47,309 nucleotides of DNA from Thermoplasmata archaeon (lineage in GTDB: Archaea > Thermoplasmatota > Thermoplasmata > RBG-16-68-12 > JAGMCJ01), in contig JAGMAI010000020.1 in assembly GCA_023130895.1 (NCBI GenBank), positions 1 to 47,309 of the forward strand. The letters are read 5' to 3'. The position numbers and the translations under genes are program-made. Below the pieces are notes generated by a model, which saw nothing but the letters and a program-made list of their open reading frames with translations, did not search any database and had not been told where the DNA came from. This document shows, one piece after another, positions 1-14,641 of this stretch. How positions within the stretch are numbered: position 1 is the stretch's first letter; the number at the start of each line of letters is the position of its first letter.

Positions 1-914
1 AGCATAGGGACGATTGGTGAGTGAGATTTATTGATTTCTGTGGGACTCGGAGCACCCATATAATCACTCCAGAATAATCGTTCAGAGTGTTCATGTGATA
101 CTGCAATAGGCCATGTCTGGCTAATTGGCGTTTCGATGTCCGTATTGTCCTATGCTCGTTTGTGAGAGAGATGGGTTGGAGCTCTCTAGGTTCGTGTTGA
201 GGCTTGTCTGAAGCCACAGGTAGGTTTTGCACTAGGTTCGGAGCCATTCTCGATATGCAGACTGCCGGGGCAATGCAGGATGAAATCGAGGGCCTGGATG
301 AAAAGCTCTCGACATTACTTCATGATGAAGACGTTCAGAGGTTGCTGAAGAGGAGAATGATCGAACGCGGGATTAGGTGATTGTTTTCTCTTTTCATCCA
401 ACCGGGGTCTCAACCGAGTTCAACGGTCCATGTGCCGAGAGCGTTGAGATGTCGCTTAGATATTCCCTTCTATTGCCAGTCGTTGACATGGGTCGTGCTC
501 GGATGAGGACTGACTTTCTGAAAACCTCAGGATAGTTCAGCGAAGCTTCGGATGATAGTCTTCTGACGATAGGCCTTCATGAGGGGACATACAGGAGCTT
601 GAGTTTCCAGACATTCCTAGGGAGAGATGGACAAGAATCCGATGCTCAACCTCGTCGAATGCTGTCGCGCTCCTGAATGCGCTTGTTCTCTGTCTTGAGG
701 GCTTAATCCATCTGCAGAGCACACCACGAAAACAACAGGGACGGATGGCTCAATATCGACTACGAATGTCTCCAAAACAAATAAAAGGAGGAAACGGATG
801 CAGGACACGGAGGAGACAAGGGGATGTACTTCTGGATGTCTGGCTGGCGTGACGTGGCAGCGAAGAGCATTCCCCTCTGATGGCCTGGTATCACCAGTAT
901 GCGGGGTATGACTC

Positions 915-3053
915 ATGAGTAGATATGACGGACTAGATGCGAGGTCGGAACTGGAGCAGACCGTCGCAGAAGACCTCGAATCCGCACTCAAGAAGAGGAG
1001 ATTCGAGGTGAGACATAATGGGACAAAAACACAACCAGCTAAGGCAGGACTGCCAGACATTGAGGTCTGGAATGCCAAGAACCACATCAACGTTGAGGTG
1101 ACCAAGACGACGAAATCAAGTTCTGACCGGGAATACTTAGCGATCAAAGACCATCTCGACCAATCAAAGGAGAAGCACCCGAATAAGAGTTGCTTTGTCT
1201 GGTACATATCACCAGAGACTCACTATCGAATGATGGGAGCCATGAGAGCACATAACCTCTCAAGGGAGGATATCCCAGATCTTGTGATGATGCCAGTCTG
1301 CTTTTCCACATTTGAGCTGTTTGTTGGCAAACTCGTTCAGGCCACGAAAGATGAATACAAGGCACCTCAGATTGTCCAACTGTTCTCCCGATGCAAGGAT
1401 TTCGCGGACGATGAGAGTGTCTTGAGAATCTTCTACGAAGAGCTGTTTCCGACCGACAATGAATTGAGGAAGAGACTTGAGGCAAGAGAAGACAACAGAC
1501 ATCAAACCATTGTCCAAGATCTAATCAGAGATCTCACGAGACTTGAACAGGACTTGAGGGACTATAGAATAGCTTTGTCTACGGACGCTATCAAGAATGT
1601 CATCTACCTTGTCTTCATCAAACTCTATGAGGAAAAGCGAGAGTACGAGGGAAAGGAGAATCGCTTCACGAAGGAGACCTTCTTGAGGTTTCAGGAATAC
1701 GCAGGGCAAGAGGAGAAGAAGTTGGCTATCCACGAGCTGTTCAAGAAGATTAGGGACGACCCCGAATTAAGGAAGGCGAACCTATTCACAGACATGGATA
1801 GGTTATCGGAAAAGTTGAAAGATGATTTTGTCGTTAAGTATTTCATCGAACCCTTCTCGCAGTATCATTTCTACACCACGAAGGTGGATGGTTTGGGTGC
1901 AGCCTATGAAGTCCTTGGAAAACTATCGGGAAAGGATGTGAAAGTGGGGCAATTCTTCACGCCAGAGTATGTTGTGAAGTTCATGGTCAAGCTTGCTGGG
2001 CTTGAGAGCACTGACATTGTGCTCGACCCGGCCTGCGGGACTGGAAGATTCTTGATATATGCTATGGAGGACATGCTTTCCAGGGTCACTGGAGTGAACG
2101 TTGACAAGCAGAAGAAGAATGTCAAGACGAAGCAACTCTTGGGATCAGACGACGACACGAATGTAGCGAAGCTGGCAAAAATGAACATGTACATACACGG
2201 CGATGGAAAAGCGAACATCTTCGATCGAGACGGGCTGTTGCTGTCTGACTTCGACAAGAAAATCGATGTTGTTCTCACCAACCCTCCGTTGGGTAATCTG
2301 ACATACATGAAGGATACTTATGATGACGACTTCAGGCTCAAAAGAATGGAAACAATACCCAGAAAAAACCAGACAGAAGAGAGTCTCACGGTCTTTGAGG
2401 AGAGACTTGTCCGCTTCAGAGAGAAGCTAAAAGAAGCCAAGAAGACAGAGAAGAAAGTCAAGTACTTCGAGAAGAAGGTCAAAGAGTATGAGGAGAAGGT
2501 AAGTGAATGCAGACTCCAAATAAGAGACGGAAAGGAGGAATATAAGACTACGGGCAATCTGATGAAGGGTGGAGCCCTCTTCGTCAACGCAACGAAGCAC
2601 TATTTGAAGGATGTTAGAGATGAGGATGCTCTGCCCGAATGGCGTGGAGGGAAACTGCTTATTATCCTTGACGAAGGCATCCTGAACACGGACAACTACA
2701 GACAAGCTAGGCAGTTCATCAGGACGCACTTCTACATCAAGGCAGTCATATCACTAACCAAAGACGCATTCGTGCCTGTGTCAAATACGACTACGAAAAC
2801 GTCAATTCTGTATGCAATCAAGAAGGAGGATCCAGATGCGATTCAGAAAGAGCCAGTATTCTTTGCTCATGCAGAAAAAGTTGGGATTAATACGAGGAAG
2901 AAGACCTGTCCGAATCACCTGTACAACGATCGTACTAGCATTCTGTCGAAGTATTCAGAGTTCAAGAAATGCGTACTTGAGTCCTATGATGAGGTCCATT
3001 TCAACAGAGAACGCTTCTTGGAGCACGGCTTTGAAAAGGGGATAATAGGTTGA
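915..3053 (+). CDS. Fused PD-(D/E)xK endonuclease / gamma-class N6-adenine DNA methyltransferase (BcgI-A-like, Type IIB/IIG RM subunit)
   Basis: 712-aa ORF. The N-terminus has a nuclease-like pattern (GLPDIEVW...INVEVTK). It is followed by HsdM-type motifs: GQFFTPEYVVKFMV (motif X), VLDPACGTGRFL (motif I, SAM binding), NMYIHGDG and VVLTNPPLG (motif IV). The stop overlaps the start of the next gene. Confidence 0.75.
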   Translation: MSRYDGLDARSELEQTVAEDLESALKKRRFEVRHNGTKTQPAKAGLPDIEVWNAKNHINVEVTKTTKSSSDREYLAIKDHLDQSKEKHPNKSCFVWYISPETHYRMMGAMRAHNLSREDIPDLVMMPVCFSTFELFVGKLVQATKDEYKAPQIVQLFSRCKDFADDESVLRIFYEELFPTDNELRKRLEAREDNRHQTIVQDLIRDLTRLEQDLRDYRIALSTDAIKNVIYLVFIKLYEEKREYEGKENRFTKETFLRFQEYAGQEEKKLAIHELFKKIRDDPELRKANLFTDMDRLSEKLKDDFVVKYFIEPFSQYHFYTTKVDGLGAAYEVLGKLSGKDVKVGQFFTPEYVVKFMVKLAGLESTDIVLDPACGTGRFLIYAMEDMLSRVTGVNVDKQKKNVKTKQLLGSDDDTNVAKLAKMNMYIHGDGKANIFDRDGLLLSDFDKKIDVVLTNPPLGNLTYMKDTYDDDFRLKRMETIPRKNQTEESLTVFEERLVRFREKLKEAKKTEKKVKYFEKKVKEYEEKVSECRLQIRDGKEEYKTTGNLMKGGALFVNATKHYLKDVRDEDALPEWRGGKLLIILDEGILNTDNYRQARQFIRTHFYIKAVISLTKDAFVPVSNTTTKTSILYAIKKEDPDAIQKEPVFFAHAEKVGINTRKKTCPNHLYNDRTSILSKYSEFKKCVLESYDEVHFNRERFLEHGFEKGIIG

Positions 3054-4471
3054 CACTGGACGCATCCAACTATTACATATCATATCCAGCAGAGAAAGAA
3101 GACGAACGCCTAGACTTCAATTATAATCATCCCATCTACAGAGAGATGGAGAGTAGGATAAGGCAGCTTGGGAGCTGTTACGAACTGAATGAAATCATTC
3201 GAGCAGCAGGATTGACCAACGGAGTGGAGATAAGGAATTTCGTGGAAAAAGAGGAAGGCAACCCTTATTTGCGGGTGTCGGATTTCCGGGATGTAGGCGT
3301 GTCGCTTGAGAATGTGGCTTACGTCTCAGCTTCTATCGATGACCTAGCCAAGGATATTGGGCTTGAGAATGGGGACTTGTTGGTTACAAGGTCTGGAACT
3401 CTCGGTTTGGTTGTTACTGTCGATGACATCTTTCCTAAATCCCTCATAATCTCGTCTGACATCATTAGAGTCAGGCTGAAATCGAGAATAGGGAGTGTGA
3501 GAATCGTACCGAAGTATGTTGAGGTCTACTTGAGGACAAGTCTGGGTCAGTATCAGTTTCGGAGAATCGACCACGGTTCATCCATACCCAAGATAAACCA
3601 GCCGTCCCTATCATCGATCTCGGTATTAATACCAACAGCAGACAAGCAGCAACGTATTGTTAATGCTTTCAACAGTGCTTTGAAGCAATACTGCAATAGA
3701 TTGCACACGTCAAGAGAACTCATTGCTCACGCGTTTGAAAAGCTTCTAGATGAGCTGGGAGTGGAACTGGTTGATGAGAAGGCTGACTACTATTACAGTT
3801 GGTTTGATGAGCTGAATGATAGACTCTCGTATGGAACCTATCATCCATCTGTAGAGCAACTCAGAACCTCCTTGGACAACTCAAAGCACGGATCAAGAAC
3901 CCTAGGACAACTCATAGAGCTCCGATACGACACGATAGAACCAACAAAACAACCAGAAGAGGAGTACTTGTACATCGGTCTCGAAGACATCGAGCGAAAC
4001 ACCGGCAGTTTGTCCAATGTCCGTAGGATGAGAGGACAAGATATTTCGAGCAAATCGAATGTGTTCAGAAAGGGTCAACTGATGTTCGCTGGATTGAGAC
4101 CGTATTTGAACAAGTGCTTCATCCTAGAGCATCACGATGATGCGATAGGATCAGCAGAGTTGTTTGTGTGTGACCCGAAAGAAGGTGTATCGTTGAAGTA
4201 TCTGAAATGGTTCCTGCTTAGCGATGCCACTCTGAGGCAGACCGAATGGATCCTTTCAGGGGCAAGCTATCCACGGCTTGATGAATCGGATTTCCTCAAC
4301 TTGAAAGTGGTTATTCCCGAGGAGTATGAAGAGCAAGTGAGGATATCGAAGGCAGTAGACGTGGAAATGAGAAATGCTGAGACCGAGAAACAAGAGGCAG
4401 AGAAGAAATGGGAAGCGGCTATGAATTCTCTTGAAGGAATGATACGAGACGCTGTCAGAAGGGGAAGATAG
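3050..4471 (+). CDS. hsdS: HsdS-family DNA specificity subunit with two target-recognition domains
   Basis: 473 aa, with a TTG start inside a TTGA overlap with the upstream stop. There are two similar halves. Each ends in the conserved HsdS helical region (IPTADKQQRIVNAFNSALKQ, and VIPEEYEEQVRISKAVDVEMRNAETEKQEAEKKW). Confidence 0.85.
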   Translation: MTLDASNYYISYPAEKEDERLDFNYNHPIYREMESRIRQLGSCYELNEIIRAAGLTNGVEIRNFVEKEEGNPYLRVSDFRDVGVSLENVAYVSASIDDLAKDIGLENGDLLVTRSGTLGLVVTVDDIFPKSLIISSDIIRVRLKSRIGSVRIVPKYVEVYLRTSLGQYQFRRIDHGSSIPKINQPSLSSISVLIPTADKQQRIVNAFNSALKQYCNRLHTSRELIAHAFEKLLDELGVELVDEKADYYYSWFDELNDRLSYGTYHPSVEQLRTSLDNSKHGSRTLGQLIELRYDTIEPTKQPEEEYLYIGLEDIERNTGSLSNVRRMRGQDISSKSNVFRKGQLMFAGLRPYLNKCFILEHHDDAIGSAELFVCDPKEGVSLKYLKWFLLSDATLRQTEWILSGASYPRLDESDFLNLKVVIPEEYEEQVRISKAVDVEMRNAETEKQEAEKKWEAAMNSLEGMIRDAVRRGR

Positions 4472-4707
4472 GCAACACTCAGTAAATACCGAGCTGTCTG
4501 ATTCTCACTGAGACCGTTCCGTACGTCCAGATTCATCCTCCACTGAGGCTAGGAAGACTCAGGTTGTCATAAGGAAGGTTCTATGCGAGCCTTTGCCCAC
4601 AACTGGTCTTGACCTGACCTCCTCAAAGATGTTCTCTGAAGAGGAGAATACTACAGGTCTCCGAAATCGTTGAGTTCTATTGACATATTCAGTCAGTGGG
4701 GAGAGGA

Positions 4708-5943
4708 ATGCTTAAGAGCGTATTTCTCAAGAATCTCAAGTGCTTCGAGGAAGTTAGTCTTCCAGACCTTAGGGACATCAGCATATTGTGCGGAGCGAAT
4801 AACGTGGGCAAGTCCTCTATATTCCAATCCTTGGTGTTTCTGAAGGATTCGATTCGGAAGGGAGAACTCGATTGGAGTAAGGTCGAGCCTCAACTCGGGG
4901 ACTTCACCGACATGGTCCACAAGCATGACCTGAGAAGGAGCATCACAATCTCGTGTTCGTTTGCGATCTCAAAGGAGGACGAAGTCCTTCTGAAAGGACT
5001 GACGAAGATGCCTCGTGAGATATCCTACACAATTCGGTTCAACAGAGACCTCAGGTTGGTCGAGGAAAGCGTTGACTTCGATGGTGGCACCCCCGTCATT
5101 GTGATCGACCATCGTTCCGGACGTGGATCGACATTCCTCTATTCGGATTTCACTCAGTCGGTCGGTGAAGATTCTGCATTGACAGAAGTATCTCCCAATC
5201 GCTTTGCTCCCCTAGCTTGGGGGTTTCGCGTGACAGAGATGAAGGATCCAAGAGTTGCCGTTGTTGAGAGCTTGAGAAATGTCTTGACCAGAAACTTCGA
5301 GAATATGTATTTCTTGTCACCCAGACGAGGAATATCTGACTGGTCTTCTCGGCCTTCAGGTGCTCCAGCTCACGTTGGCTACCAAGGGGAGAGCACGAAC
5401 CCAATGTTGCACTATATGTTCTCAGAAAGGGACAAGACCTTTGACAAGATAGAAAAATGGCTCAGGAAATTCGACAGCGAAATCAAGATGCTCAAATCTC
5501 CAATGAGGGGAGATTCCACGGCTATCGTGGTCTCAACGCCACTTGGCGATATGAACATAATGACCTCGGGATATGGGCTCAACGCAGCGCTCCCAATAGT
5601 CGTACAGTGTCTGTGCTCTCCCCCTGGGAGTTCCATACTTATTGAGGAACCAGAAATCCATTTACACTCTGGGGCTCAGAAGGTTCTCGTTGACATTTTC
5701 AGGAGTCTCCTTTCGGACAAGAAACAGGTGCTATTCACCACGCACTCTTTCGACATTCTCTTGGACTTCTATGAGAGATTGCGGGATAAGAAGATCGACG
5801 AGAACAAGGTCATCAGGTATGACATCCTCAAGACAAGAAAAGGAAAACGAAGAGTCAGAAAAACAGATGTTCATAGGTATGGATTTAGTGGTCATGGTAG
5901 CTGGAGAGAACAACTGCGACATCTGACCGAGAGACCTCCCTAG
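4708..5943 (+). CDS. ABC-type / AAA_15-AAA_21-like ATPase (OLD/RecF-like ATPase domain, no attached nuclease)
   Basis: Walker A is GANNVGKSS near the N-terminus. Walker B with the signature region is ILIEEPEIHLHSGAQ. The H-loop is FTTHS. The ATG at 4708 is preceded by GGGGAGAGG; the ORF track begins at a GTG at 4696. Confidence 0.75.
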   Translation: MLKSVFLKNLKCFEEVSLPDLRDISILCGANNVGKSSIFQSLVFLKDSIRKGELDWSKVEPQLGDFTDMVHKHDLRRSITISCSFAISKEDEVLLKGLTKMPREISYTIRFNRDLRLVEESVDFDGGTPVIVIDHRSGRGSTFLYSDFTQSVGEDSALTEVSPNRFAPLAWGFRVTEMKDPRVAVVESLRNVLTRNFENMYFLSPRRGISDWSSRPSGAPAHVGYQGESTNPMLHYMFSERDKTFDKIEKWLRKFDSEIKMLKSPMRGDSTAIVVSTPLGDMNIMTSGYGLNAALPIVVQCLCSPPGSSILIEEPEIHLHSGAQKVLVDIFRSLLSDKKQVLFTTHSFDILLDFYERLRDKKIDENKVIRYDILKTRKGKRRVRKTDVHRYGFSGHGSWREQLRHLTERPP

Positions 5944-6208
5944 GCAAGCCGTGTTCGGTTTTCCCGTGTAGGCAAGATAATCTTGACCGTTGGAACAGGT
6001 GATGCTATCCAAACCAAGAGACACTTTTCGGGGGCTCTCGAAGGCAGTTTGTGATGACTGGCGTTAGCGTCCCCAATGTTGCAGTGCGTCAATATGAATC
6101 GTTGGAGGAATGTCGCGCTCCTCATTGTTCTGCGACACTTCCTCTATGGTTCGAAATATCTTTGACGTCTTCGAAATCCTTATCTGGCATTAGTCTCTTA
6201 GTTGACTT

Positions 6209-7309
6209 GTGAACGGATTGAAGTGGTATGAACGCGACGCGACGTACAGAGTCGGTGCAATATTGCTGATAGCCAGCGGGGCTATTGTCTCTGCACTCTA
6301 CGACAAGTGGGTGCTCCCGACCTTTCTCCCATTCTTGGTGGGCTGGGGCTTAGGTTTCTTCGGCGGGATGTGGCTTAGCAAGCTTGTCAGGGACCGCGTA
6401 TGGCTAAAGCAGGAATCCGCCCTTCTCATTTACTTGTCTGCGATAGGGTTTTCATACGTACTCTTGTTGGCTTTTGGCATTGTCCAGAGCTGGGCGTTCC
6501 CTGCATCCGCCGCTCTTCAAGGCATCGGAACAGCCTTCGGCTTTCACTTGCCTTGGAACCTCTCATATATGTATGAGAAACACAAGAGAGAGGAAGTGGT
6601 GGACATGCTCACATCACTTGCCAAACGGGAGAACTTCGTCATCACAGGTCTCGATTCAATCGCTCAGCTCAACAAGATCGTTGAAGAGAACGATGAGACT
6701 TCAGTTTTCAGTGATTTGTACGAACGACAGCGGTACAAGATATTCCATGAGGTCTGGAACAGACAGCGAGAGGAAAGCCGCGGGGAGCTTTATGATATTG
6801 CTGGGATTTGGGAGAAAGCTATGAAGCTCCGAGCGAGCGTTCGTGAGAGGATGCAGACGCTGTATGGTTTCTCAATGATTCCCGAAAGGGAAAACCTGTA
6901 TCCAGCATTTGCGAAGCTGCCAACATTGCTGACCGAACTACGAAGTCTGGTCATTGACTTGGCTCAAATCATTGATGACTTCGACGCAACGAGTCTTGGT
7001 AAACTTACTGGAGTATCGGCCAAGGCAGGACACGTGGCTTGGCAAGCTGTACTCAACCATACTGGCCAGGAATACGATCCAAAGACTATCGAAATCCTGA
7101 GAAATCTCAGGCAGATTAGGCACGGCTTCGCGCACAGATGGGATGAGGGCTTTTATCAGGCGCTGGAGTACTTCGGCTTGCACCAAGCGTTTCTATCTGG
7201 AGTCTATACTCAAGTCTGGATAGGGCTGTCCAAGTCCTACCTCGAAAGCCTTGACCTGATTCTTTCTCACCTGACTAGATGGCAGTATCACTCATACCGC
7301 GAGGTCTAA
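6209..7309 (+). CDS. Membrane protein (about 4 TM helices) with a C-terminal soluble domain carrying a HEPN-like R-x4-H motif
   Basis: 366 aa with a GTG start. Hydrophobic segments are RVGAILLIASGAIVSALY, FLPFLVGWGLGFFGGMWL, LLIYLSAIGFSYVLLLAFGIV and ASAALQGIGTAFGFHL. The C-terminal region contains LRQIRHGFAHRWDEG, which resembles the RxxxxAH motifs of AbiU2/Abi-type HEPN domains. Confidence 0.5.
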   Translation: MNGLKWYERDATYRVGAILLIASGAIVSALYDKWVLPTFLPFLVGWGLGFFGGMWLSKLVRDRVWLKQESALLIYLSAIGFSYVLLLAFGIVQSWAFPASAALQGIGTAFGFHLPWNLSYMYEKHKREEVVDMLTSLAKRENFVITGLDSIAQLNKIVEENDETSVFSDLYERQRYKIFHEVWNRQREESRGELYDIAGIWEKAMKLRASVRERMQTLYGFSMIPERENLYPAFAKLPTLLTELRSLVIDLAQIIDDFDATSLGKLTGVSAKAGHVAWQAVLNHTGQEYDPKTIEILRNLRQIRHGFAHRWDEGFYQALEYFGLHQAFLSGVYTQVWIGLSKSYLESLDLILSHLTRWQYHSYREV

Positions 7310-7491
7310 TTGCCGACTCCGTTCACAAGAGAACAGAAAACGTCTTCATTCTCATCGGAGAACGACATTCTGGGACCCAAAAGCAAACCTCAGACCTCTG
7401 TCAACTAACCTGATTGAAGGGCGTGTCCATCTCCTTCGAAGCCATGGCTGCCGCTGCCCTTATGTAGGAATGTGACCTACTGGGTATCCCA

Positions 7492-7950
7492 ATGAAAGAT
7501 GATCTTGAGCATGTTGTCATCAGAAGAGTAGAATTCGTCGCTGGAACGAAAGAGGAACCTGAAGCCAGCGTGTATGTCCAAGCAAATAGGAAGAAGCCGC
7601 CGCTGAAAACAGATCTGTTCAGGGTTGGTCAAGTTGTCTGGATGAAATGGTCTGGTGGTCCGATAGTTGCTCGCTCAAGAATTCTATCTTGGCAGAGTGG
7701 AACGGTTGTTGGGGGAGATGTCAGCGAAGTTCGGGACAAAACGAAGGGAACGGGCCTTCACGACAAGAAGCGGTTCTGGGAGTTCCTTGCTGACAAGGGC
7801 TACTTCCACTTCACAGTCGTTCGACTTACCGATGAAGAATTGCTGGAAACTCCCATCCACTCTACTGCGAGATCTTTCGGTTCATCTTGGATATACTTGA
7901 GAAATCAGAGAGACAAAAAACGATGGCTGGTGGGCCTTCACGATAGTTGA
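7492..7950 (+). CDS. Hypothetical protein (a small beta-rich, PUA/ASCH-like fold is only a guess)
   Basis: 152-aa ORF, co-directional with the upstream genes. No diagnostic motif was recognised. Confidence 0.4.
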   Translation: MKDDLEHVVIRRVEFVAGTKEEPEASVYVQANRKKPPLKTDLFRVGQVVWMKWSGGPIVARSRILSWQSGTVVGGDVSEVRDKTKGTGLHDKKRFWEFLADKGYFHFTVVRLTDEELLETPIHSTARSFGSSWIYLRNQRDKKRWLVGLHDS

Positions 7951-8280
7951 TTCCGCACAGTAGGCTTTGTCAACACCTGTAGCGATGCAGTGTACCTCTG
8001 TGCGCAAGGTTGATCCGCTTGGCCTGGCTCTGTTCCGAATCGATTGTGCAGAGCATGCTCAAACCAGAGTCTGCTTCGCTAATCCGGAAATGTAGTCTAA
8101 TCTAATGTCTTTTTCCCGCGACATCGGCAAACCAAACCTAGAGAGAAAATGGCAGACTTCAATATGGTGTGCGACAATACTTAGTTCTCATCAGCTGGTT
8201 CCGCTTACGCTAATCATCGTGATGCAATGTCACTGCAATAGGCTTTTCAGAAGTATCACCGGGAGAACGAGGTCCCCATA

Positions 8281-9852
8281 TCACGGGAACTTTCTCAAGG
8301 ATGATGGGGGGCTTGTTGCCGGTTCTGCAGAGATTCTTGCGATGCAATTAGGGGGACCAATCGAGTATGTATCTTGACCCGAGCCCGTGTCAATCGGGAG
8401 AGGAATACTGTCGACACTGCCTGAGGCATCGAATTTGATCAACCATATGTCCGAGTCACCGGCGCCGTAGGACTTTGTGGACCCGACTACTGTGTACTCG
8501 TCATCGGAAATCTCGTGGACTGCATGTCCAAACCAATGCATAGAGGAAACATCCCATCGACTCCCGCCAAATGTCTTGTTCCATTCCTCATTGCCTGAGT
8601 TGTCGGTTTTGATCAACCACATGTCCATCTCGCCAGCACCGTATGAGCTTGTGGCTCCTGCTATGATGTACCCACTGTCAGAAGTCTGCTGAGCGGTCTG
8701 TCCCTCGTCCCGTCCTGCCCCACCAAATGTCCTGTTCCATTCTCCATTTCCTAGACTGTCAGTTTTGATCAGCCATAAATCCCAAGCACTAGCTTCAGAA
8801 TAGTACGTTCTCCCAGTCATTATGAATCCATCATCAGAAGTCTGTTGAACTGACATTCCATAGTCCCCCTCAGTCCCGCCAAAGGTTTTGTTCCATTCTT
8901 CATTGCCCAGACTGTCGGTCTTGATCAACCACGCATCGGAGTTGCCTTCACCGTAGGATCTCGTGCCCGCTGTCACAACGTACCCATCATCAGAGGTCTG
9001 CTGGACAACGAGTCCAAGCTCCCACTCGCTTCCGCCGAATGTCCTGTTCCATTCCTCGTTACCCAGACTGTCGGTCTTGATCAGCCACACGTCCTTGTTG
9101 CCTGCGCCATAGGACTCTGCAGTCCCTGCTATGACGTACCCGTTATCGGAGGTTTGCTGAACTGACATTCCATAGTCCCTTTCACTCCCGCCAAAGGTCC
9201 TATTCCATTCTTCATTGCCAGAACTATCAGTCTTGATCAGCCACGCATCCGACAAACCACCACCGAGGGTCATTGTAGCCCCCGCTATGATGTACCCCCA
9301 ATCAGAAGTCTGTTGGACCGAATATCCGTCATCCAATTCGCTCCCGCCGAATGTCTTGTTCCATTCCAGATTGCCCAGACTGTCGGTCTTGATCAGCCAC
9401 GCATCACGGTTCCCAGCACCGTAGGAAGCCGTATCCCCGACGATTATATAACCGCCGTCTGAAACCGGCTGGGCCGAGTGACCATAATCCTCTTCGGTCC
9501 CTCCATAGGTCTTGTTGATGAGGAGGCTGGTAGACCACGAGAGTCCAACCTCTCCCGTAGCGGCAGCAGAGCTTGCGTTCCTTCCATACCCTTGGGGTCC
9601 ACTCGGTCCGGGCAGTCCCATTGCACCCACGTCACTTTGTGGTCCTGCGGGATACTCCGAACCCATTGATCCGGGGAATCCGAGCATACCAATCAAGGCC
9701 AAAGCCAGCGCAATCACTGCGACAGATAGGGCAGCATTGGAGACATCGATCATTGGAGCGCGGACAACGAGAGGTGCAGGGGCGGCTGGGGATATTGCTT
9801 CCAGTGGGTTCTCGTTTGCCGGCTCTCTAGTACGACTGACTTCGCTATTCAC
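8281..9852 (-). CDS. Membrane-anchored / secreted repeat protein (beta-propeller-like repeats of about 50 aa)
   Basis: GTG start with GAGGAGGT upstream. There is an N-terminal TM segment (AALSVAVIALALALIGMLGF). Seven copies of D-x-WLIK(T/F)D-x-x-G-x-x-EWN(K/R)TFGG...SVQQTSD-x-GY(I/V)I(A/V)G...SYGAG follow. Confidence 0.8.
   Translation of the reverse strand: MNSEVSRTREPANENPLEAISPAAPAPLVVRAPMIDVSNAALSVAVIALALALIGMLGFPGSMGSEYPAGPQSDVGAMGLPGPSGPQGYGRNASSAAATGEVGLSWSTSLLINKTYGGTEEDYGHSAQPVSDGGYIIVGDTASYGAGNRDAWLIKTDSLGNLEWNKTFGGSELDDGYSVQQTSDWGYIIAGATMTLGGGLSDAWLIKTDSSGNEEWNRTFGGSERDYGMSVQQTSDNGYVIAGTAESYGAGNKDVWLIKTDSLGNEEWNRTFGGSEWELGLVVQQTSDDGYVVTAGTRSYGEGNSDAWLIKTDSLGNEEWNKTFGGTEGDYGMSVQQTSDDGFIMTGRTYYSEASAWDLWLIKTDSLGNGEWNRTFGGAGRDEGQTAQQTSDSGYIIAGATSSYGAGEMDMWLIKTDNSGNEEWNKTFGGSRWDVSSMHWFGHAVHEISDDEYTVVGSTKSYGAGDSDIWLIKFDASGSVDSIPLPIDTGSGQDTYSIGPPNCIARISAEPATSPPSSLRKFP
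8420..9520 (-). repeat. In-frame tandem coding repeats, period about 150 bp (about 7 units)
   Basis: The DNA periodicity corresponds to the WLIKTD...TFGG...QQTSD protein repeats inside CDS 8281-9852. The repeat boundaries are approximate. Confidence 0.75.
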
Positions 9853-10196
9853 AATTCGACCTCCTCAACAAAATGCCATACGACACTGGAGTTATAAATA
9901 TAGATTGGAACAACCTTCAATATGAATTGTACAATTTTGGATGGCTGCCAGTCTGCCGAGCAGTTGCTTGGTTCTCGGAGTCGATATTCCTTATGATCGC
10001 GGTCCAGGCCATATCGTAGAATAAGGCAGAGATGTGCTCTTCAAGATGTCGCACTTCCTTACGATGTGCGACATTGTTGCAGACCAATCCCAAGGAATGC
10101 TTGACTCCTTCAGAGATGCGGTCTCGCACTCATCATTCGCACCAATGCACTCACTCTGAGCGGTCAGTCCCTCGAGAGTGACACCTGATCGACCGT

Positions 10197-11261
10197 TCAC
10201 GTGGGTGCGCCGTCCAAGGCCTCCCCAATGATGTTGGAGAAATCGCAGTTTACTGGAACGTCCGCCTCGCTCAGGGCTACGAGTTCGATCTCGGGCCTAC
10301 GAACGACATGCCCTCCTCCGGCACAGAGAGAACCAAGGGCCTTCCTTGCTCCGTAGAATTCCTCATAATCCCTGTACGCTGAGCACCATATCGATTCGGA
10401 GTTCCCGACGGAAGTAAAGAACACTGGTGCGATCTCAAGTGTTCTTCGAATTCCCCCCATCCTTGACTTGAGAGGAGTCTTCGAACTGTGCGTCATGTGC
10501 ACGAAGGAGTAGATACTGTAGCCAACCTTTCTGAGATCGACCACTCTCGCGGTCCTTATCAGCCCAGCCCTCTCAAACCTCTTCTTCATGCTCGAGATGA
10601 CCTGTCTGGAGGCGTCGACTCTCTCTGACAGGGCGACGTCCGTGAACTCAGGATAGGCCACCAGTCCCTTCAGGACCGTTCTCTCTTTCTTCGTCAGTCT
10701 TCTCGCCTGAACCTTCTGGAACGTTGCCTCAGCAGCTATCTTCTCCTCTATCCCGAAAAGCAGGCTGAGCGCTCTCGAGTAGTCGAAGTGTCTCACCAGT
10801 CTTGCAGTCTCAAAGGGGAAGACCACCCATGTCTTCGTTGAATCGCTGAAGAGATTTGTGCCGCTGAACTCGAACTCGAGTTTCTCTGCCCATCTCCTGA
10901 AGGAAGTGTAGTTCTTCGATGCAGACATGAACAAGAAGAAATCCGGTGAGGTCAGGAAGTAGTAGAGACCCTTGTTCTCTCTCTTCAGCGTGTCCAGGAA
11001 TCGTTTTCTGAGTTCCTCATCCGCCGATGGATTGTATCTTCCGTATCCCACGACCGCAAGTTCATAACCTAGTCTGCTGACGGCTGGGATTCTGACAGTC
11101 TTGAAGTAACCCTCCTGATGCAACCTTCTCCTGATCGCCGTGATCGTCGAGTGTTTCACTCCCATCCTCTCGGAAAGCCCACGGTCATTCAAGGTTGGAT
11201 ACTTGGCCAATCCGTACAGGACTGTTCGTTCGTTCTTTGTCAGACCCTTCTTCACGAACAC
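10197..11261 (-). CDS. Transcriptional regulator with two tandem winged-helix modules
   Basis: 354 aa with a GTG start. An internal duplication is visible: KNERTVLYGLAKYPTLNDRGLSERMGVKHSTITAIRRRLHQEGYFKTVRI and TKKERTVLKGLVAYPEFTDVALSERVDASRQVISSMKKRFERAGLIRTARV. Confidence 0.7.
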   Translation of the reverse strand: MFVKKGLTKNERTVLYGLAKYPTLNDRGLSERMGVKHSTITAIRRRLHQEGYFKTVRIPAVSRLGYELAVVGYGRYNPSADEELRKRFLDTLKRENKGLYYFLTSPDFFLFMSASKNYTSFRRWAEKLEFEFSGTNLFSDSTKTWVVFPFETARLVRHFDYSRALSLLFGIEEKIAAEATFQKVQARRLTKKERTVLKGLVAYPEFTDVALSERVDASRQVISSMKKRFERAGLIRTARVVDLRKVGYSIYSFVHMTHSSKTPLKSRMGGIRRTLEIAPVFFTSVGNSESIWCSAYRDYEEFYGARKALGSLCAGGGHVVRRPEIELVALSEADVPVNCDFSNIIGEALDGAPT

Positions 11262-11695
11262 TTGAATGATTCTCTATTATAATATCGTTATGAAGATGTT
11301 AATGTTACGTCTGCAGGTCCGTATTTAACGCTTGTCCAGAGATGTCTGATTCACGTCAGTGTTTCAGGAGAGCAATTGAACAGTGGGCGATGGTTGCCCG
11401 AGTCATGGGGACGATCGATGATCGTCAGCCCAGACGGCTGGTCTGAGAAAATGTCTTGTCCAGGACGGTGTCCTGCATCAGGAGAGAATACTTGGTAGTT
11501 GTGCCGTCCTGGACAACCGACTGCATATTGGAGGGATAGATCGGGACATGTCCTGTCCCGCGTTGCAGTCGGGTATGACATGAACTCTATTGAGTGAGTC
11601 AAGTCTATTGGTACACTGTTTTGTGGAATGATTCCCGGAAACCAAGAGAGAATTGCAGCCGACAGCTGCTCTTGAAACGTCAGACCCTCATTGAA

Positions 11696-12290
11696 CTACG
11701 TCACTTCGATTATCCAGTCCACGTCAGACTCCACCTTCACCCAATACCCTTATCCTGGCTGAAGAACCTCCGCGTCTCCTGGCACTCTCAGATGATACGG
11801 AGGCGTGGGATTGTTGCCCTCCACACGCACCGCTCCCATCATCTTGACATCGTACACAGTATAAGAGGAATTGAACGAAGGGAAAGAGACAAGATTCCAT
11901 CCCTCGCACGGATGCATCATAGTCTGGGGAGGGACAATTCCTGCCACTGTGAGATTCGAGAGTCCTCTGTCACGTCTACCCATGCTCCTGTGGTGCGATT
12001 CACGCTCCACAGACCTCTCCTGTAGCCCTTGGAGGTCATGTGCCACCTCCATTCGTGGGAGGAGGAGTCGTAGAACCATGCATTGTCGTTGTCGTATTGC
12101 ACTGTCTGACGAACGGTCTGGATGCTCTCGTTGGACTGGATGAGCGGGACGGAGACGAGGTTCGGATCTCGAGAGAGAGCGGAAGCGTGACCTTGGCGGC
12201 TTGAACGTTGCAGCAAGCTACGTTGTTGTACGGTCCTAATGCAGATTGGACGCAGGTAGGTAATTCGCTTGTGGAGGGATCAAAACACGT
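11696..12290 (-). pseudogene. Decayed 3' fragment paralogous to the C-terminal domain of the beta-helix surface protein at 15101-16882
   Basis: Three reading frames together reproduce the C-terminal part of the paralogue. NVQAAKVTLPLSL / PNLVSVPLIQSNESIQTV / NLTVAGIVPPQT...GWNLVSFPSF...RVEGN...GDAEVL / GYWVKVESDVDWII correspond to QVAKFTRPLSLGPNLISIPLIQSNESIEAI...NLTVAGIVPTQT...GWNLVSFPSF...RVEGY...GDAEVLLAGEAYWIEVDADVDWMV. There are at least two frameshifts and one in-frame TAA. Confidence 0.75.
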
Positions 12291-12520
12291 GTGTTGCGCC
12301 TAGCCCAGTAAGAACAGAGTCCTTCTGGTTTTAATATGTGATTGGGCATCGAGAATGAGATCTCTCTTCAGGCGGACAAGATATGTCCCTGTTCTTATTG
12401 GATGACGTTAGAGAATTCTGTTAGAAGCCAGGACCAGTGGTAACAGGGCGTCATTTGCCCCGACGTTCGTCTGTATGCTTCCATGGCACTGTTAGTCACG
12501 GACTACCTAGGAGTGACACC

Positions 12521-12688
12521 TTATTCGTTTGCTATCTCTTCCAGCTCAAGCTCTTCTCCGGGTTTGACTTTCCTTTTGATGTGCTTGTCCATTATCACGA
12601 CTTTGGTTTTCTTTTGTCTCTTTTCAGGCAGCTCGCTCATTCTGACAACTTCAACTGGTGCCTCTTTCCTATCTTTTCTCTTGACCAT
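12521..12688 (-). CDS. Small ORF (55 aa) paralogous to the N-terminal module of the 208-aa protein upstream
   Basis: Not in the ORF track (under 60 aa). MVKRKDRKEAPVEVVRMSELPEKRQKKTKVVIMDKHIKRKVKPGEELELEEIANE aligns with MVREKLDIEAHRELVKMSELSDEKQEKTRVLVMDKKFRRKIGIGQELDL. GGAGAGG lies upstream of the ATG. Confidence 0.45.
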   Translation of the reverse strand: MVKRKDRKEAPVEVVRMSELPEKRQKKTKVVIMDKHIKRKVKPGEELELEEIANE

Positions 12689-12833
12689 TCTACATCATCC
12701 TCTCCCGCTTGGACATCCACGTCGCAGATCATCTTCTCGATGCTCTTTCCGATATCGGGCGGAGATACTTATAGTCTCGACTGCAGCTTGCGTCCTCTCT
12801 ACACGAATGCGAAAGGGGGAGCGTATTCGAATC

Positions 12834-13460
12834 CTATATCATGGCAAGTACGGGAACCCAATTCGTCTTGTTGAAGTCGTAGATTGCATCGTTTTGGGGC
12901 TCCACTAGCTTCATCTTCTTCTGGTCTCTGCTATAGTAGCAGTTGACTGCGTGATAGAAGCCTGGGCCTCTGAACCACAGTACTCCAAATGGAACGCCCT
13001 TCAACTTGTCATTCATGAGTCCGGAGACCACCTGTGCGAAGTCGTCGCAATCGAAATAGGTGTTTATCCACATCTGCAGGTCTGTGAGGTCCTCGGACAA
13101 CACCTTCTTGACTTGCGTATCTGGGTATAGGAAGTAGAAGCCATCAGAGATAAACACACCACCTGATGTGGAGAACGCTCCGAAATCCCGGATTATTGCA
13201 CTTGAAAGGTCTCCACCCGATATGGTCGGGCCTCTGATCACAGTCTGACCCCCTGGAACGTCTTCAGGTGCATCAACAAATTCCAGGACACCTTCATCTT
13301 CCACCATCTTCGTGAGATCCAGCTCCTGCCCAATTCCGATTTTCCTTCTGAACTTCTTGTCCATCACCAATACTCTTGTTTTCTCCTGTTTCTCATCGGA
13401 CAGTTCGCTCATCTTCACTAGCTCACGATGTGCCTCTATGTCAAGCTTTTCTCTTACCAT
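12834..13460 (-). CDS. Hypothetical protein with a possible papain-fold Cys-His-Glu domain (MOA agglutinin C-terminal-like)
   Basis: 208 aa, with a strong SD (GGAGGGAGGT) before the ATG. Candidate triad: YFDCDDFA (Cys138), FYHAVN (His170), VEPQ (Glu187). The function is inferred only from this pattern. Confidence 0.6.
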   Translation of the reverse strand: MVREKLDIEAHRELVKMSELSDEKQEKTRVLVMDKKFRRKIGIGQELDLTKMVEDEGVLEFVDAPEDVPGGQTVIRGPTISGGDLSSAIIRDFGAFSTSGGVFISDGFYFLYPDTQVKKVLSEDLTDLQMWINTYFDCDDFAQVVSGLMNDKLKGVPFGVLWFRGPGFYHAVNCYYSRDQKKMKLVEPQNDAIYDFNKTNWVPVLAMI

Positions 13461-13711: not shown

Positions 13712-14641
13712 TTACGAAACTAGGGGAATATCCGCAGATTGTCTGATGGAGGCGCTCTTCTTGGACAGTATCCATTGCGCCAGTTCGTGGAATCCCCTCT
13801 CCACGTTCATTCCGGTTTTGGCGCTAGTGAAGATGAACGGAGAGCCGATCCTTCGCGAATACTTTGCCACATCCTTCCTGTCAAAATCGAACTGATCCTC
13901 CAGGTCCGTCTTGTTGGCAACGATGCACACAGGCACCTTTCCCGTCGCATGGAAGATGGAAGACTTCCAGCCCTCCAGGCTTCTCAGAGTCTCGTTTCGC
14001 GTGACATCGCAGACGGCGAGGATGCCCTGCATCCCCTTGAAATGGGACTCCATGTAGAGGTCTGCGATGCTCCTCTTCCCCATTATGTCCCAGACCATCA
14101 TGACGACTCTCATTTGCTTTCCTCTCGGGAGGGGAACCAACATCTCCTTCTTTGACACCTTTGCTCCTATCGTCTTCACGTACTTGTCATCGAACTGATC
14201 CAAGACGAATTTTCTGATGAGACTGGTCTTCCCCACCCCCGCATCACCAACAATGCCCACCTTGAACTTGGCAACTTCCCACTTGCGGTTCCTCGTCTCT
14301 TCTGCGGCCTCTGAGACCATCCTCATCTCGTAGTCCATTCCTGCAACCTTCAAGAGGTACTTCATCTTGGTGATTGCCGAGTGAACTGCCCGTATCATGT
14401 TCTCGTCTTTCGACAGAGCGTCCTTGGGAACAGTAAGAATGAGCCTGTCTTCCTCGAGTATCCAACCCTCGGATTCCAGGACATTCGAGAGCATCGCCAG
14501 TCTCATGTCCTCTCGTTTCACGAGAACCTCGAAGGTTATCCTTCCCTCCTTGCTCGTCTCTCTCAGATCACGGCCCCTGGGAATCCCGTCCAGCAGTATC
14601 TTCTTGCTCCCAGGTTTCATTGACATCACCGATGGCATCAC
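13712..14641 (-). CDS. Ras-superfamily (Rab/Ras-like) small GTPase with an N-terminal extension of about 125 aa
   Basis: G1 is GDAGVGKTS, G2 is YVKTIG, G3 is WDIMGKR, G4 is NKTD and G5 is TSAKTG, all in canonical order and spacing. GTG at 14641 or ATG at 14638 could be the start. Confidence 0.85.
   Translation of the reverse strand: MMPSVMSMKPGSKKILLDGIPRGRDLRETSKEGRITFEVLVKREDMRLAMLSNVLESEGWILEEDRLILTVPKDALSKDENMIRAVHSAITKMKYLLKVAGMDYEMRMVSEAAEETRNRKWEVAKFKVGIVGDAGVGKTSLIRKFVLDQFDDKYVKTIGAKVSKKEMLVPLPRGKQMRVVMMVWDIMGKRSIADLYMESHFKGMQGILAVCDVTRNETLRSLEGWKSSIFHATGKVPVCIVANKTDLEDQFDFDRKDVAKYSRRIGSPFIFTSAKTGMNVERGFHELAQWILSKKSASIRQSADIPLVS

Follow-up and report, generated by a model that had tools for sequence, protein, structure and literature searches.

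A variable hotspot in a Thermoplasmata archaeon that brings together an NsnB-like ATPase, a rare membrane protein with a HEPN-type motif and an HNH-less ASCH/PUA-like protein

Introduction

Menshen, the described system that comes closest to one part of the locus considered here, is composed of a ParB-DUF262 sensor (NsnA), an ATPase (NsnB) and an inPIN-nuclease effector (NsnC) (PMC12065111). A second point of comparison is provided by the HEPN domains, for which a rule of catalytic competence has been formulated: a conserved Rx4-6H motif with a polar residue (N, D or H) directly after the R (Anantharaman et al. 2013, PMC3710099). Membrane-fused HEPN proteins are already on record, at least three groups having been described, among them a DUF4145-type one (PMC3710099). 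A third is provided by fusions of PUA-superfamily sensor domains with HNH domains, which are established modification-dependent restriction enzymes (PMC6765204, PMC7897488). All of these bear on three genes at positions 4708-7950 of contig JAGMAI010000020.1 of a Thermoplasmata archaeon (assembly GCA_023130895.1; the whole stretch of 47,309 nucleotides (nt) is referred to as the window), which encode an ATPase, a membrane protein with a HEPN-type motif and a protein of 152 residues.

A sequence-only reading of the window had taken these genes, which lie directly downstream of restriction-modification (RM) genes, for a possible new defence system pairing an ATPase with a membrane-tethered HEPN candidate. 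As a description it holds up: the three + strand genes are intact, they follow the RM genes and every motif that had been quoted is present. The proposed system fails the comparative test given below. The segment 900-8200 is probably a defence island, specific to the strain and located at a variable hotspot, in which separate modules have been juxtaposed that do not constitute one system. The first of these modules would be a BcgI-like methylase/specificity pair and the second an NsnB/AriA-like ABC ATPase without its usual signalling partners, probably travelling with the RM genes in a cargo segment; the third would be a solitary four-helix membrane protein, and the fourth a stand-alone ASCH/PUA-like protein, a putative reader of modified nucleic acid.

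Co-occurrence of the three genes

The question of one system or several modules is addressed by comparison of loci. In a tblastn table of 24 loci, each with a relative of at least one of the three genes, no locus holds more than one of the families (0/24). The six independent contexts of the membrane family have the membrane gene as their sole common gene and are devoid of AAA_15/21 ATPases; the HNH-less relatives of the 152-residue protein have neither ATPase nor membrane-protein neighbours, and none of its PUA-HNH relatives adjoins an ATPase. Judged from these sequences, each of the three families occurs without the others wherever else it is found, and for this reason the comparative evidence does not support a multi-gene system. 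Two considerations weigh against taking the genes as separate modules. The sample consists of one close and four distant contexts of the ATPase, six of the membrane protein and approximately six of the ASCH-type protein, mostly on short metagenome contigs. Co-transcription is also possible, because the five consecutive genes within 915-7950 are all on the + strand and no clear terminators were detected between them by a bacterial-type promoter/terminator scan, which is uninformative for an archaeon; that the genome is archaeal is indicated by its archaeal RNase P RNA (214.6 bits).

The notion of one new Menshen-like defence system, in which the ASCH protein would sense, the ATPase would transduce and the membrane HEPN-like protein would execute, has its attractions. 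The genes are consecutive and of one orientation, in an island not found in relatives; the ATPase is NsnB-like yet has neither NsnA nor NsnC beside it; the Menshen sensor belongs to a modified-DNA sensor family and the Menshen effector is an RNase-type nuclease (PMC12065111), so that the roles map neatly; and terminators between the genes went undetected in the scan just mentioned. The notion is nevertheless improbable. To the lack of co-occurrence in 24 related loci and the finding of each family on its own elsewhere are added gaps of 265 nt between the ATPase and membrane genes (266 nt in the sequence-only reading) and of 182 nt between the membrane gene and the gene for the 152-residue protein (as had been stated), an element at 6001-6127, serving as a cargo boundary in another genome (G019:C1), that separates the ATPase from the membrane gene, and a ratio of nonsynonymous to synonymous substitution rates (dN/dS) of 0.84 for the ASCH gene. 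Farther out still, and a long shot, is a Menshen-like cooperation of non-homologous parts, with an ASCH reader in place of NsnA, the membrane HEPN-like protein in place of NsnC and the NsnB-like ATPase kept; in a weaker version, the four-helix HEPN-like protein would by itself found a new archaeal family of single-gene abortive-infection proteins silenced by mRNA fold-back.

The ATPase

The ATPase gene (4708-5943, + strand) encodes 411 residues that match AAA_15 (5.2e-26) and AAA_21 (4.6e-19) in Pfam and contain the GANNVGKSS, EEPEIHLH and TTHS motifs that had been named. A start at 4696 would be an alternative, yielding 415 residues; the start at 4708, which had been chosen from the sequence, is favoured because a purine-rich stretch, GGGGAGAGG, directly precedes its ATG and because another assembly of this organism (L003) has an independent gene call of 411 residues. 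In PADLOC, the best match is NsnB (PDLC03878, 2.8e-42), followed by PDC-M55A (7.5e-32) and AriA (3.8e-28), and similarity to PtuA, GajA and AbiLi is weaker than to AriA. The NsnB alignment is nearly full length (residues 5-393 aligned to positions 1-319 of the 345-position model), and the two have in common the OLD type of ABC ATPase, a Walker B motif of variant form and a GxG-like signature. An AAA_15/21 ABC ATPase is also the feature held in common with PARIS, Septu, Gabija/OLD and AbiL/RloAB.

Partners are where the likenesses end. Neither NsnA (ParB-DUF262 and ParBDB) nor NsnC (inPIN and nuclease) turned up in the window or in the genome assembly, the ATPase has no DUF3696 match in Pfam, and its gene stands outside any tight operon; membership in Menshen was rejected for want of NsnA and NsnC. 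Genome-wide absences are limited by an assembly that is 83.7% complete, across which the NsnA and DUF4435 (AriB) models have no match; the NsnC and RloB models also have none in the genome, and control genomes are silent for both. The partners that would place this ATPase in Septu, PARIS or Gabija, named in the sequence-only reading as systems with ATPases of this kind, were likewise not found. PARIS (AriAB) was rejected in that the DUF4435/Toprim protein AriB that should accompany an AriA-like ATPase is not found in the genome. Septu (PtuAB) was rejected with PtuA at 25.1 bits against an NCBIfam cut-off of 500, no HNH partner in the window, and neither an HNH domain nor a remnant of one in the 152-residue protein; the HNH domains of the relatives of that protein do score as PtuB-like in PADLOC. 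Gabija was rejected as well; no Toprim partner is encoded in 4472-8280, and AbiL/RloAB differs in its RloB. MADS was rejected with MAD2 at 140.7 bits on the methylase (cut-off 720), MAD3 at 44.8 bits on the ATPase (cut-off 420) and no other mad genes found by PADLOC among the proteins of the window.

The ATPase has a single close relative (P0020, 55% identity) among 5.8 billion clustered proteins, and a scan of genome contigs with the ATPase as query found nothing. P0020 is encoded on a 5.7-kb contig between a divergent gene without assigned function on one side and two integrase genes and a helix-turn-helix (HTH) gene on the other; the contig has no RM gene and no relative of the membrane protein or of the 152-residue protein, and the 310-residue neighbour of P0020 bears no similarity to the membrane protein. 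Distant relatives, 25-33% identical, each have a closely coupled small partner: a 148-residue helical protein of no known family, encoded 10 nt 3' of the NsnB-like ATPase (L019-L024); mutually homologous PIN-like proteins of ~155 residues encoded directly 3' of the ATPase (G050 and G028, with a 4-nt overlap in G050); or an HTH protein, in G035, where a large methyltransferase-like open reading frame (ORF) lies alongside. Nothing in the window is similar to any of these partners; the 148-residue protein, in particular, is dissimilar to the 152-residue protein. The partners of the distant relatives having no counterpart in the window, the window ATPase would thus be an orphan in a clade whose members normally signal to a small protein encoded downstream.

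The pair of ATPase and 148-residue protein adjoins an insertion sequence (rve) transposase (L019, 3600-5195; also L020-L024). PIN-like genes of ~155 codons lie behind NsnB-like ATPases in two archaeal genomes of the same order (L039, 5423-5896, with a 4-nt overlap; L040, 5441-5908), and an NsnB-like ATPase and a PIN-like gene could form a minimal two-gene Menshen-like pair without NsnA. A second AAA_15 ATPase of the same genome (G000:C155:9363-10478, E = 1.9e-38) is contained in an ORF of 601 residues, which is possibly an OLD/Gabija-type fusion.

It has also to be considered that the ATPase serves the RM pair next to it as an accessory, modulating restriction or methylation as in type I RM or MADS loci. 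The ATPase gene begins 236 nt past the specificity gene; the elements at 419-509 and 6001-6127 bracket methylase, specificity and ATPase genes here, as they do unrelated cargo in G019:C1; the distant relative in G035 is found beside its methyltransferase-like ORF; and there is weak similarity to MAD3 and mad5. Such a role is unlikely all the same: P0020 has no RM gene on its contig, MAD2 and MAD3 fall far under their cut-offs, and an RM operon at the same hotspot in G019 has no ATPase. The account of the ATPase as an orphan module, which would nevertheless share a cargo segment with the RM genes, is retained.

The membrane protein

The gene at 6209-7309 (+ strand, GTG start) encodes 366 residues with four N-terminal transmembrane (TM) helices, as had been read from the sequence; they are predicted at residues 10-31, 35-63, 68-89 and 96-140, and positive charges in the 58-69 loop and after residue 117 suggest that the C-terminal domain is cytoplasmic. 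No family is assigned to the protein by Pfam, PADLOC, NCBIfam or PHROGs, and a word-indexed homology search returned only the protein itself. Exhaustive phmmer of 1.84 billion representatives turned up seven relatives, four of them near full length, and a metagenome scan one further member (L018, soil metagenome); one cluster holds an NCBI entry from a Thermoplasmata archaeon that is annotated merely as hypothetical protein. A search of 60 genomes from its genus and order did not find the protein, and a scan of genome contigs with the family alignment gave no match. By these searches, what has come to light is a very rare and uncharacterised four-TM family, known from Thermoplasmata-type archaea and soil metagenomes, that carries an invariant HEPN-type motif and is absent from every family library searched.

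Members are 28-45% identical and have the four N-terminal helices in common, with Q104, G107 and P115 conserved. The soluble part has three invariant blocks, IPERE[SN], [YI][IL]DDF[DE] and [LI]R-x-[IL]-R-[NH]-G-x-A-H, the last of which is LRQIRHGFAH in the window (7106-7135, + strand), with R301, R304, G306, A308 and H309 invariant. The segment R304-[H/N]305-G-x-A-H309 is preserved in all six full-length members (6/6), and R-[NH]-x3-H is the densest invariant cluster of the protein; its R-x4-H, in which the R is followed by N or H, conforms to the rule for catalytic HEPN domains. The AlphaFold2 model, made from a shallow alignment, is all-alpha (mean predicted local distance difference test (pLDDT) 80.8, predicted template-modelling score 0.60) and places the motif at the end of helix 291-308, in a helix-motif-helix layout around R-x4-H. 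In hhalign comparisons with small HepT, RiboL-PSP and DUF4145 alignments made from genomes of the class, only DUF4145 reached P = 0.01-0.02, with the motifs of four archaeal DUF4145 sequences in register. Pfam gives two weak matches to the C-terminal domains of the family, each to one member, HTH_50 (E = 0.034) and DUF4145 (E = 0.2), the latter the only HEPN-clan match. A PDB sequence search with family profiles returned chance matches only (transporters, a phosphatase).

Several results speak against a HEPN assignment. Foldseek of the full-length model against PDB and BFVD, a structural check of the kind that the sequence-only reading had called for on residues 120-366, has no match with E < 0.4; hhalign against HepT gives P = 0.26; and a run of the DUF4145, Abi_2 and RiboL-PSP models over the genome misses the membrane gene. 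The HEPN call has therefore come through in one part: the motif is invariant and followed by the required polar residue, and Foldseek, Pfam and hhalign leave the fold unconfirmed. The HEPN idea is strengthened by motif conservation, with its fold unproven; HEPN is the best hypothesis for this protein, at slightly better than even confidence, and is not established.

That the protein is neither a HEPN RNase nor a defence effector, serving instead as a rare sensor, regulator or scaffold in which the R/H cluster has a binding or structural role, is appreciably less probable. It would account for the fact that no HEPN family is matched significantly in sequence or in structure, for the invariant IPERE[SN] and [YI][IL]DDF[DE] blocks, which are not HEPN features, and for an alignment in which no Ex3[KR] motif is seen. 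It sits poorly with an R-[NH]-x3-H that is both the densest invariant cluster and a fit to the published rule, and with a gene that is patchy, solitary, strain-specific and placed among RM, TIR and Schlafen-like genes, a distribution and setting typical of defence genes or toxins and not of a housekeeping membrane protein. The neighbours of family members include TIR, SLFN_AlbA_2 (Schlafen/AlbA_2) and AAA_22-TPR proteins, which fits residence in defence islands, and by the comparison of contexts the membrane gene behaves as a solitary, patchily distributed module. The soil-metagenome member has, on the - strand of its contig (L018, 5469-6344), a 291-residue neighbour with no Pfam match and an FRHPVLHG (R-x4-H) string.

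With HEPN as the favoured hypothesis, the protein is a candidate membrane-anchored HEPN-like effector whose nearest analogues are the DUF4145-type TM-HEPN proteins (PMC3710099) and Csx28 of type VI-B CRISPR. Like these, the window protein has its membrane segments at the N-terminus and an all-alpha domain in the cytoplasm, carries an R-x4-H in which a polar residue follows the R, and is predicted to act at the inner membrane face. In contrast, its membrane part consists of four TM helices, in which Q, G and P residues are conserved, where the others have one WP helix or the Csx28 layout, and it has extra invariant PERE and DDFD blocks, no Cas13b association and no significant homology or fold match. 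The invariant R-[N/H]-G-x-A-H would most likely be a HEPN-type, metal-independent RNase site, and the protein might be an effector that is toxic or aborts infection, working at the inner membrane face through RNA cleavage and/or membrane perturbation on oligomerisation.

How such a protein might be kept in check is suggested by a 17-nt inverted repeat (12-nt perfect core, 15/17 matches) that brackets the gene. The left arm (6201-6217, + strand) covers the GTG start and the right arm (7318-7334, + strand) lies 9 nt past the stop codon. The repeat was not equalled in a local shuffle test (0/200), and in both the minimum free energy and the centroid RNA folds of 6180-7360 the mRNA is closed by a helix of the two arms. 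Pairing of the mRNA ends would bury the start codon, and translation may be held off in this way. Fold-back silencing is a feature of toxin mRNAs such as hok, and the resemblance to hok is speculative. Fold-back control of the membrane gene is disfavoured by the absence of the start-codon inverted repeat from five homologous loci.

The 152-residue protein

The gene at 7492-7950 (+ strand) encodes 152 residues that had been described as having an unknown fold, a description that no longer stands. The AlphaFold2 model (pLDDT 92.8) is a PUA-like beta-barrel, matched by Foldseek to ZmASCH, the Zymomonas ASCH protein (5y6c; E = 4e-4, probability 1.00, template-modelling scores 0.62/0.65), and further to the YTH-like N-terminal domain of Staphylothermus McrB (6n0s), TTHA0113, AF2351, YqfB and YTH. 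The Pfam ASCH model does not match the protein, for which no Pfam family reaches E <= 0.1, so the domain is ASCH-like by structure only; PADLOC, NCBIfam and PHROGs assign it no family.

Most relatives are 225-235 residues long and consist of the same 150-residue domain followed by a C-terminal HNH domain (PF01844/PF14279), which is present in P0005, P0007, P0008 and P0010-P0018 and missing from the window copy and from P0003, P0004, P0006 and P0009. The 152-residue protein corresponds in this way to the N-terminal PUA-like domain of an HNH-ending family that resembles PUA-superfamily restriction enzymes such as EVE-HNH VcaM4I (Lutz et al. 2019), and it differs from them in having no nuclease domain, for which reason it would be unable to cut alone. 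No HNH remnant or frameshift lies 3' of the ORF. From these sequences, the protein appears to descend from a PUA-HNH family resembling type IV restriction enzymes, its HNH domain having been lost. The sequence-only reading had noted that the ATPase has no Toprim or HNH partner; that is correct for 4472-8280, where no Toprim or HNH coding is present, and has to be qualified by this descent of the 152-residue gene from a PUA-HNH family. Full-length PUA-HNH relatives reside in islands rich in RM and type IV genes, or alone. Comparison with a 75%-identical HNH-less copy (L011) gives the dN/dS of 0.84 (dS 0.23), which indicates, within the limits of such a sequence comparison, relaxed or diversifying selection; the residues that are invariant in the family are all kept in the window copy. 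The module would then be a stand-alone reader, derived from modification-dependent nucleases and under relaxed constraint. A PUA-HNH relative at L013 (1752-2480) is split into gene calls of 97 and 127 residues with tblastn spanning the junction, and is either a broken gene or one with a recoded stop.

Loss of this kind invites the suspicion that the ATPase and ASCH genes are functionless remains of decayed systems, an NsnB-like ATPase minus its partner and a PUA-HNH enzyme minus its nuclease. Distant ATPase relatives have partner genes directly 3' where the window has none, the HNH domain is gone without remnant, the dN/dS is high enough to be compatible and the related copy at L013 is split by a stop. 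Still, decay of both genes is a minority prospect: both frames are intact, the ATPase retains its Walker A, Walker B and H-loop motifs, the ASCH copy keeps its family-invariant residues and is modelled at the pLDDT given above, and HNH-less forms exist in several copies. Separate modules in one island remain the preferred account.

The RM genes, the hotspot and its edges

The RM genes upstream are an N6-adenine methyltransferase of 712 residues (915-3053, + strand; N6_Mtase 2.5e-31, MTase_I 4e-37, BcgI-like), whose N-terminal extension (PDIEV...VEVTK) is possibly a nuclease, and a specificity subunit of 473 residues with two target-recognition domains (3050-4471, + strand; Methylase_S 1.1e-11, Specificity_I 2.6e-36), the gene of which overlaps the methylase stop codon. 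tRNA and Rfam scans of 1-13000 gave no matches.

When 20 relatives were searched at the DNA level, seven same-genus genomes yielded nothing that matches ~900-8200; flanks at 150-510, 10043-11406 and 11670-12230 are repeated or conserved among relatives. The first of these (150-510, + strand) marks the left edge of the hotspot; it has nucleotide matches of 70-83% in G005, G003, G014 and G019 and a conserved small zinc-ribbon-like reading frame, in which CxxC has become CxxF in the window. Its counterparts in related genomes (L076, 4110-4409; L075, 4086-4287; L074, 4552-4641) stand ahead of differing cargo. In G019:C35, the element precedes another methylase-specificity operon (27% identity), behind which unrelated genes follow. 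It resembles the border of a hotspot where integration or exchange takes place.

A candidate right edge of the RM and ATPase cargo is the intergenic element at 6001-6127 (no strand assigned), of which copies occur at a contig end in G019. The ends of that contig (G019:C1, L074, 4642 bp, from another genus) match 419-509 and 6001-6127, keep the relative order of the two and enclose unrelated cargo. This single comparison hints, at the sequence level, that the methylase, specificity and ATPase genes are one exchangeable cargo segment, the membrane and ASCH genes lying outside it.

Farther along, 11670-12230 comprises ~500 bp with dozens of 65-78% identical copies in its own genome and in every genome of the genus that was searched; rather than a single local duplicate, it is an element or domain family present in many copies. 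The gene at 10043-11406 encodes 354 residues with a double winged HTH (TrmB/MarR-like) and belongs to a multi-copy paralogue family, with a copy 81% identical on contig C36 of the same genome and many of 69-73% across the genus. At 13712-14641, a Ras/Roc-family small GTPase (Ras 4.2e-30) with an N-terminal extension of ~125 residues is encoded in an archaeal accessory region.

Conclusions

The failure of the proposed ATPase and membrane-HEPN system spares effort on a false lead. The interest of what is found in its place is modest and resides mainly in the rare membrane-anchored HEPN-like family, which would bring an archaeal member to the small set of membrane-anchored HEPN effectors; within that set, to our knowledge, Csx28 is the only one that has been studied experimentally. 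NsnB-like ATPases that have partners other than NsnA and NsnC, or none, widen the view of Menshen-type modularity, and the 152-residue protein and its HNH-less kin suggest that PUA-HNH restriction-like enzymes can drop the nuclease and persist as bare reader domains.

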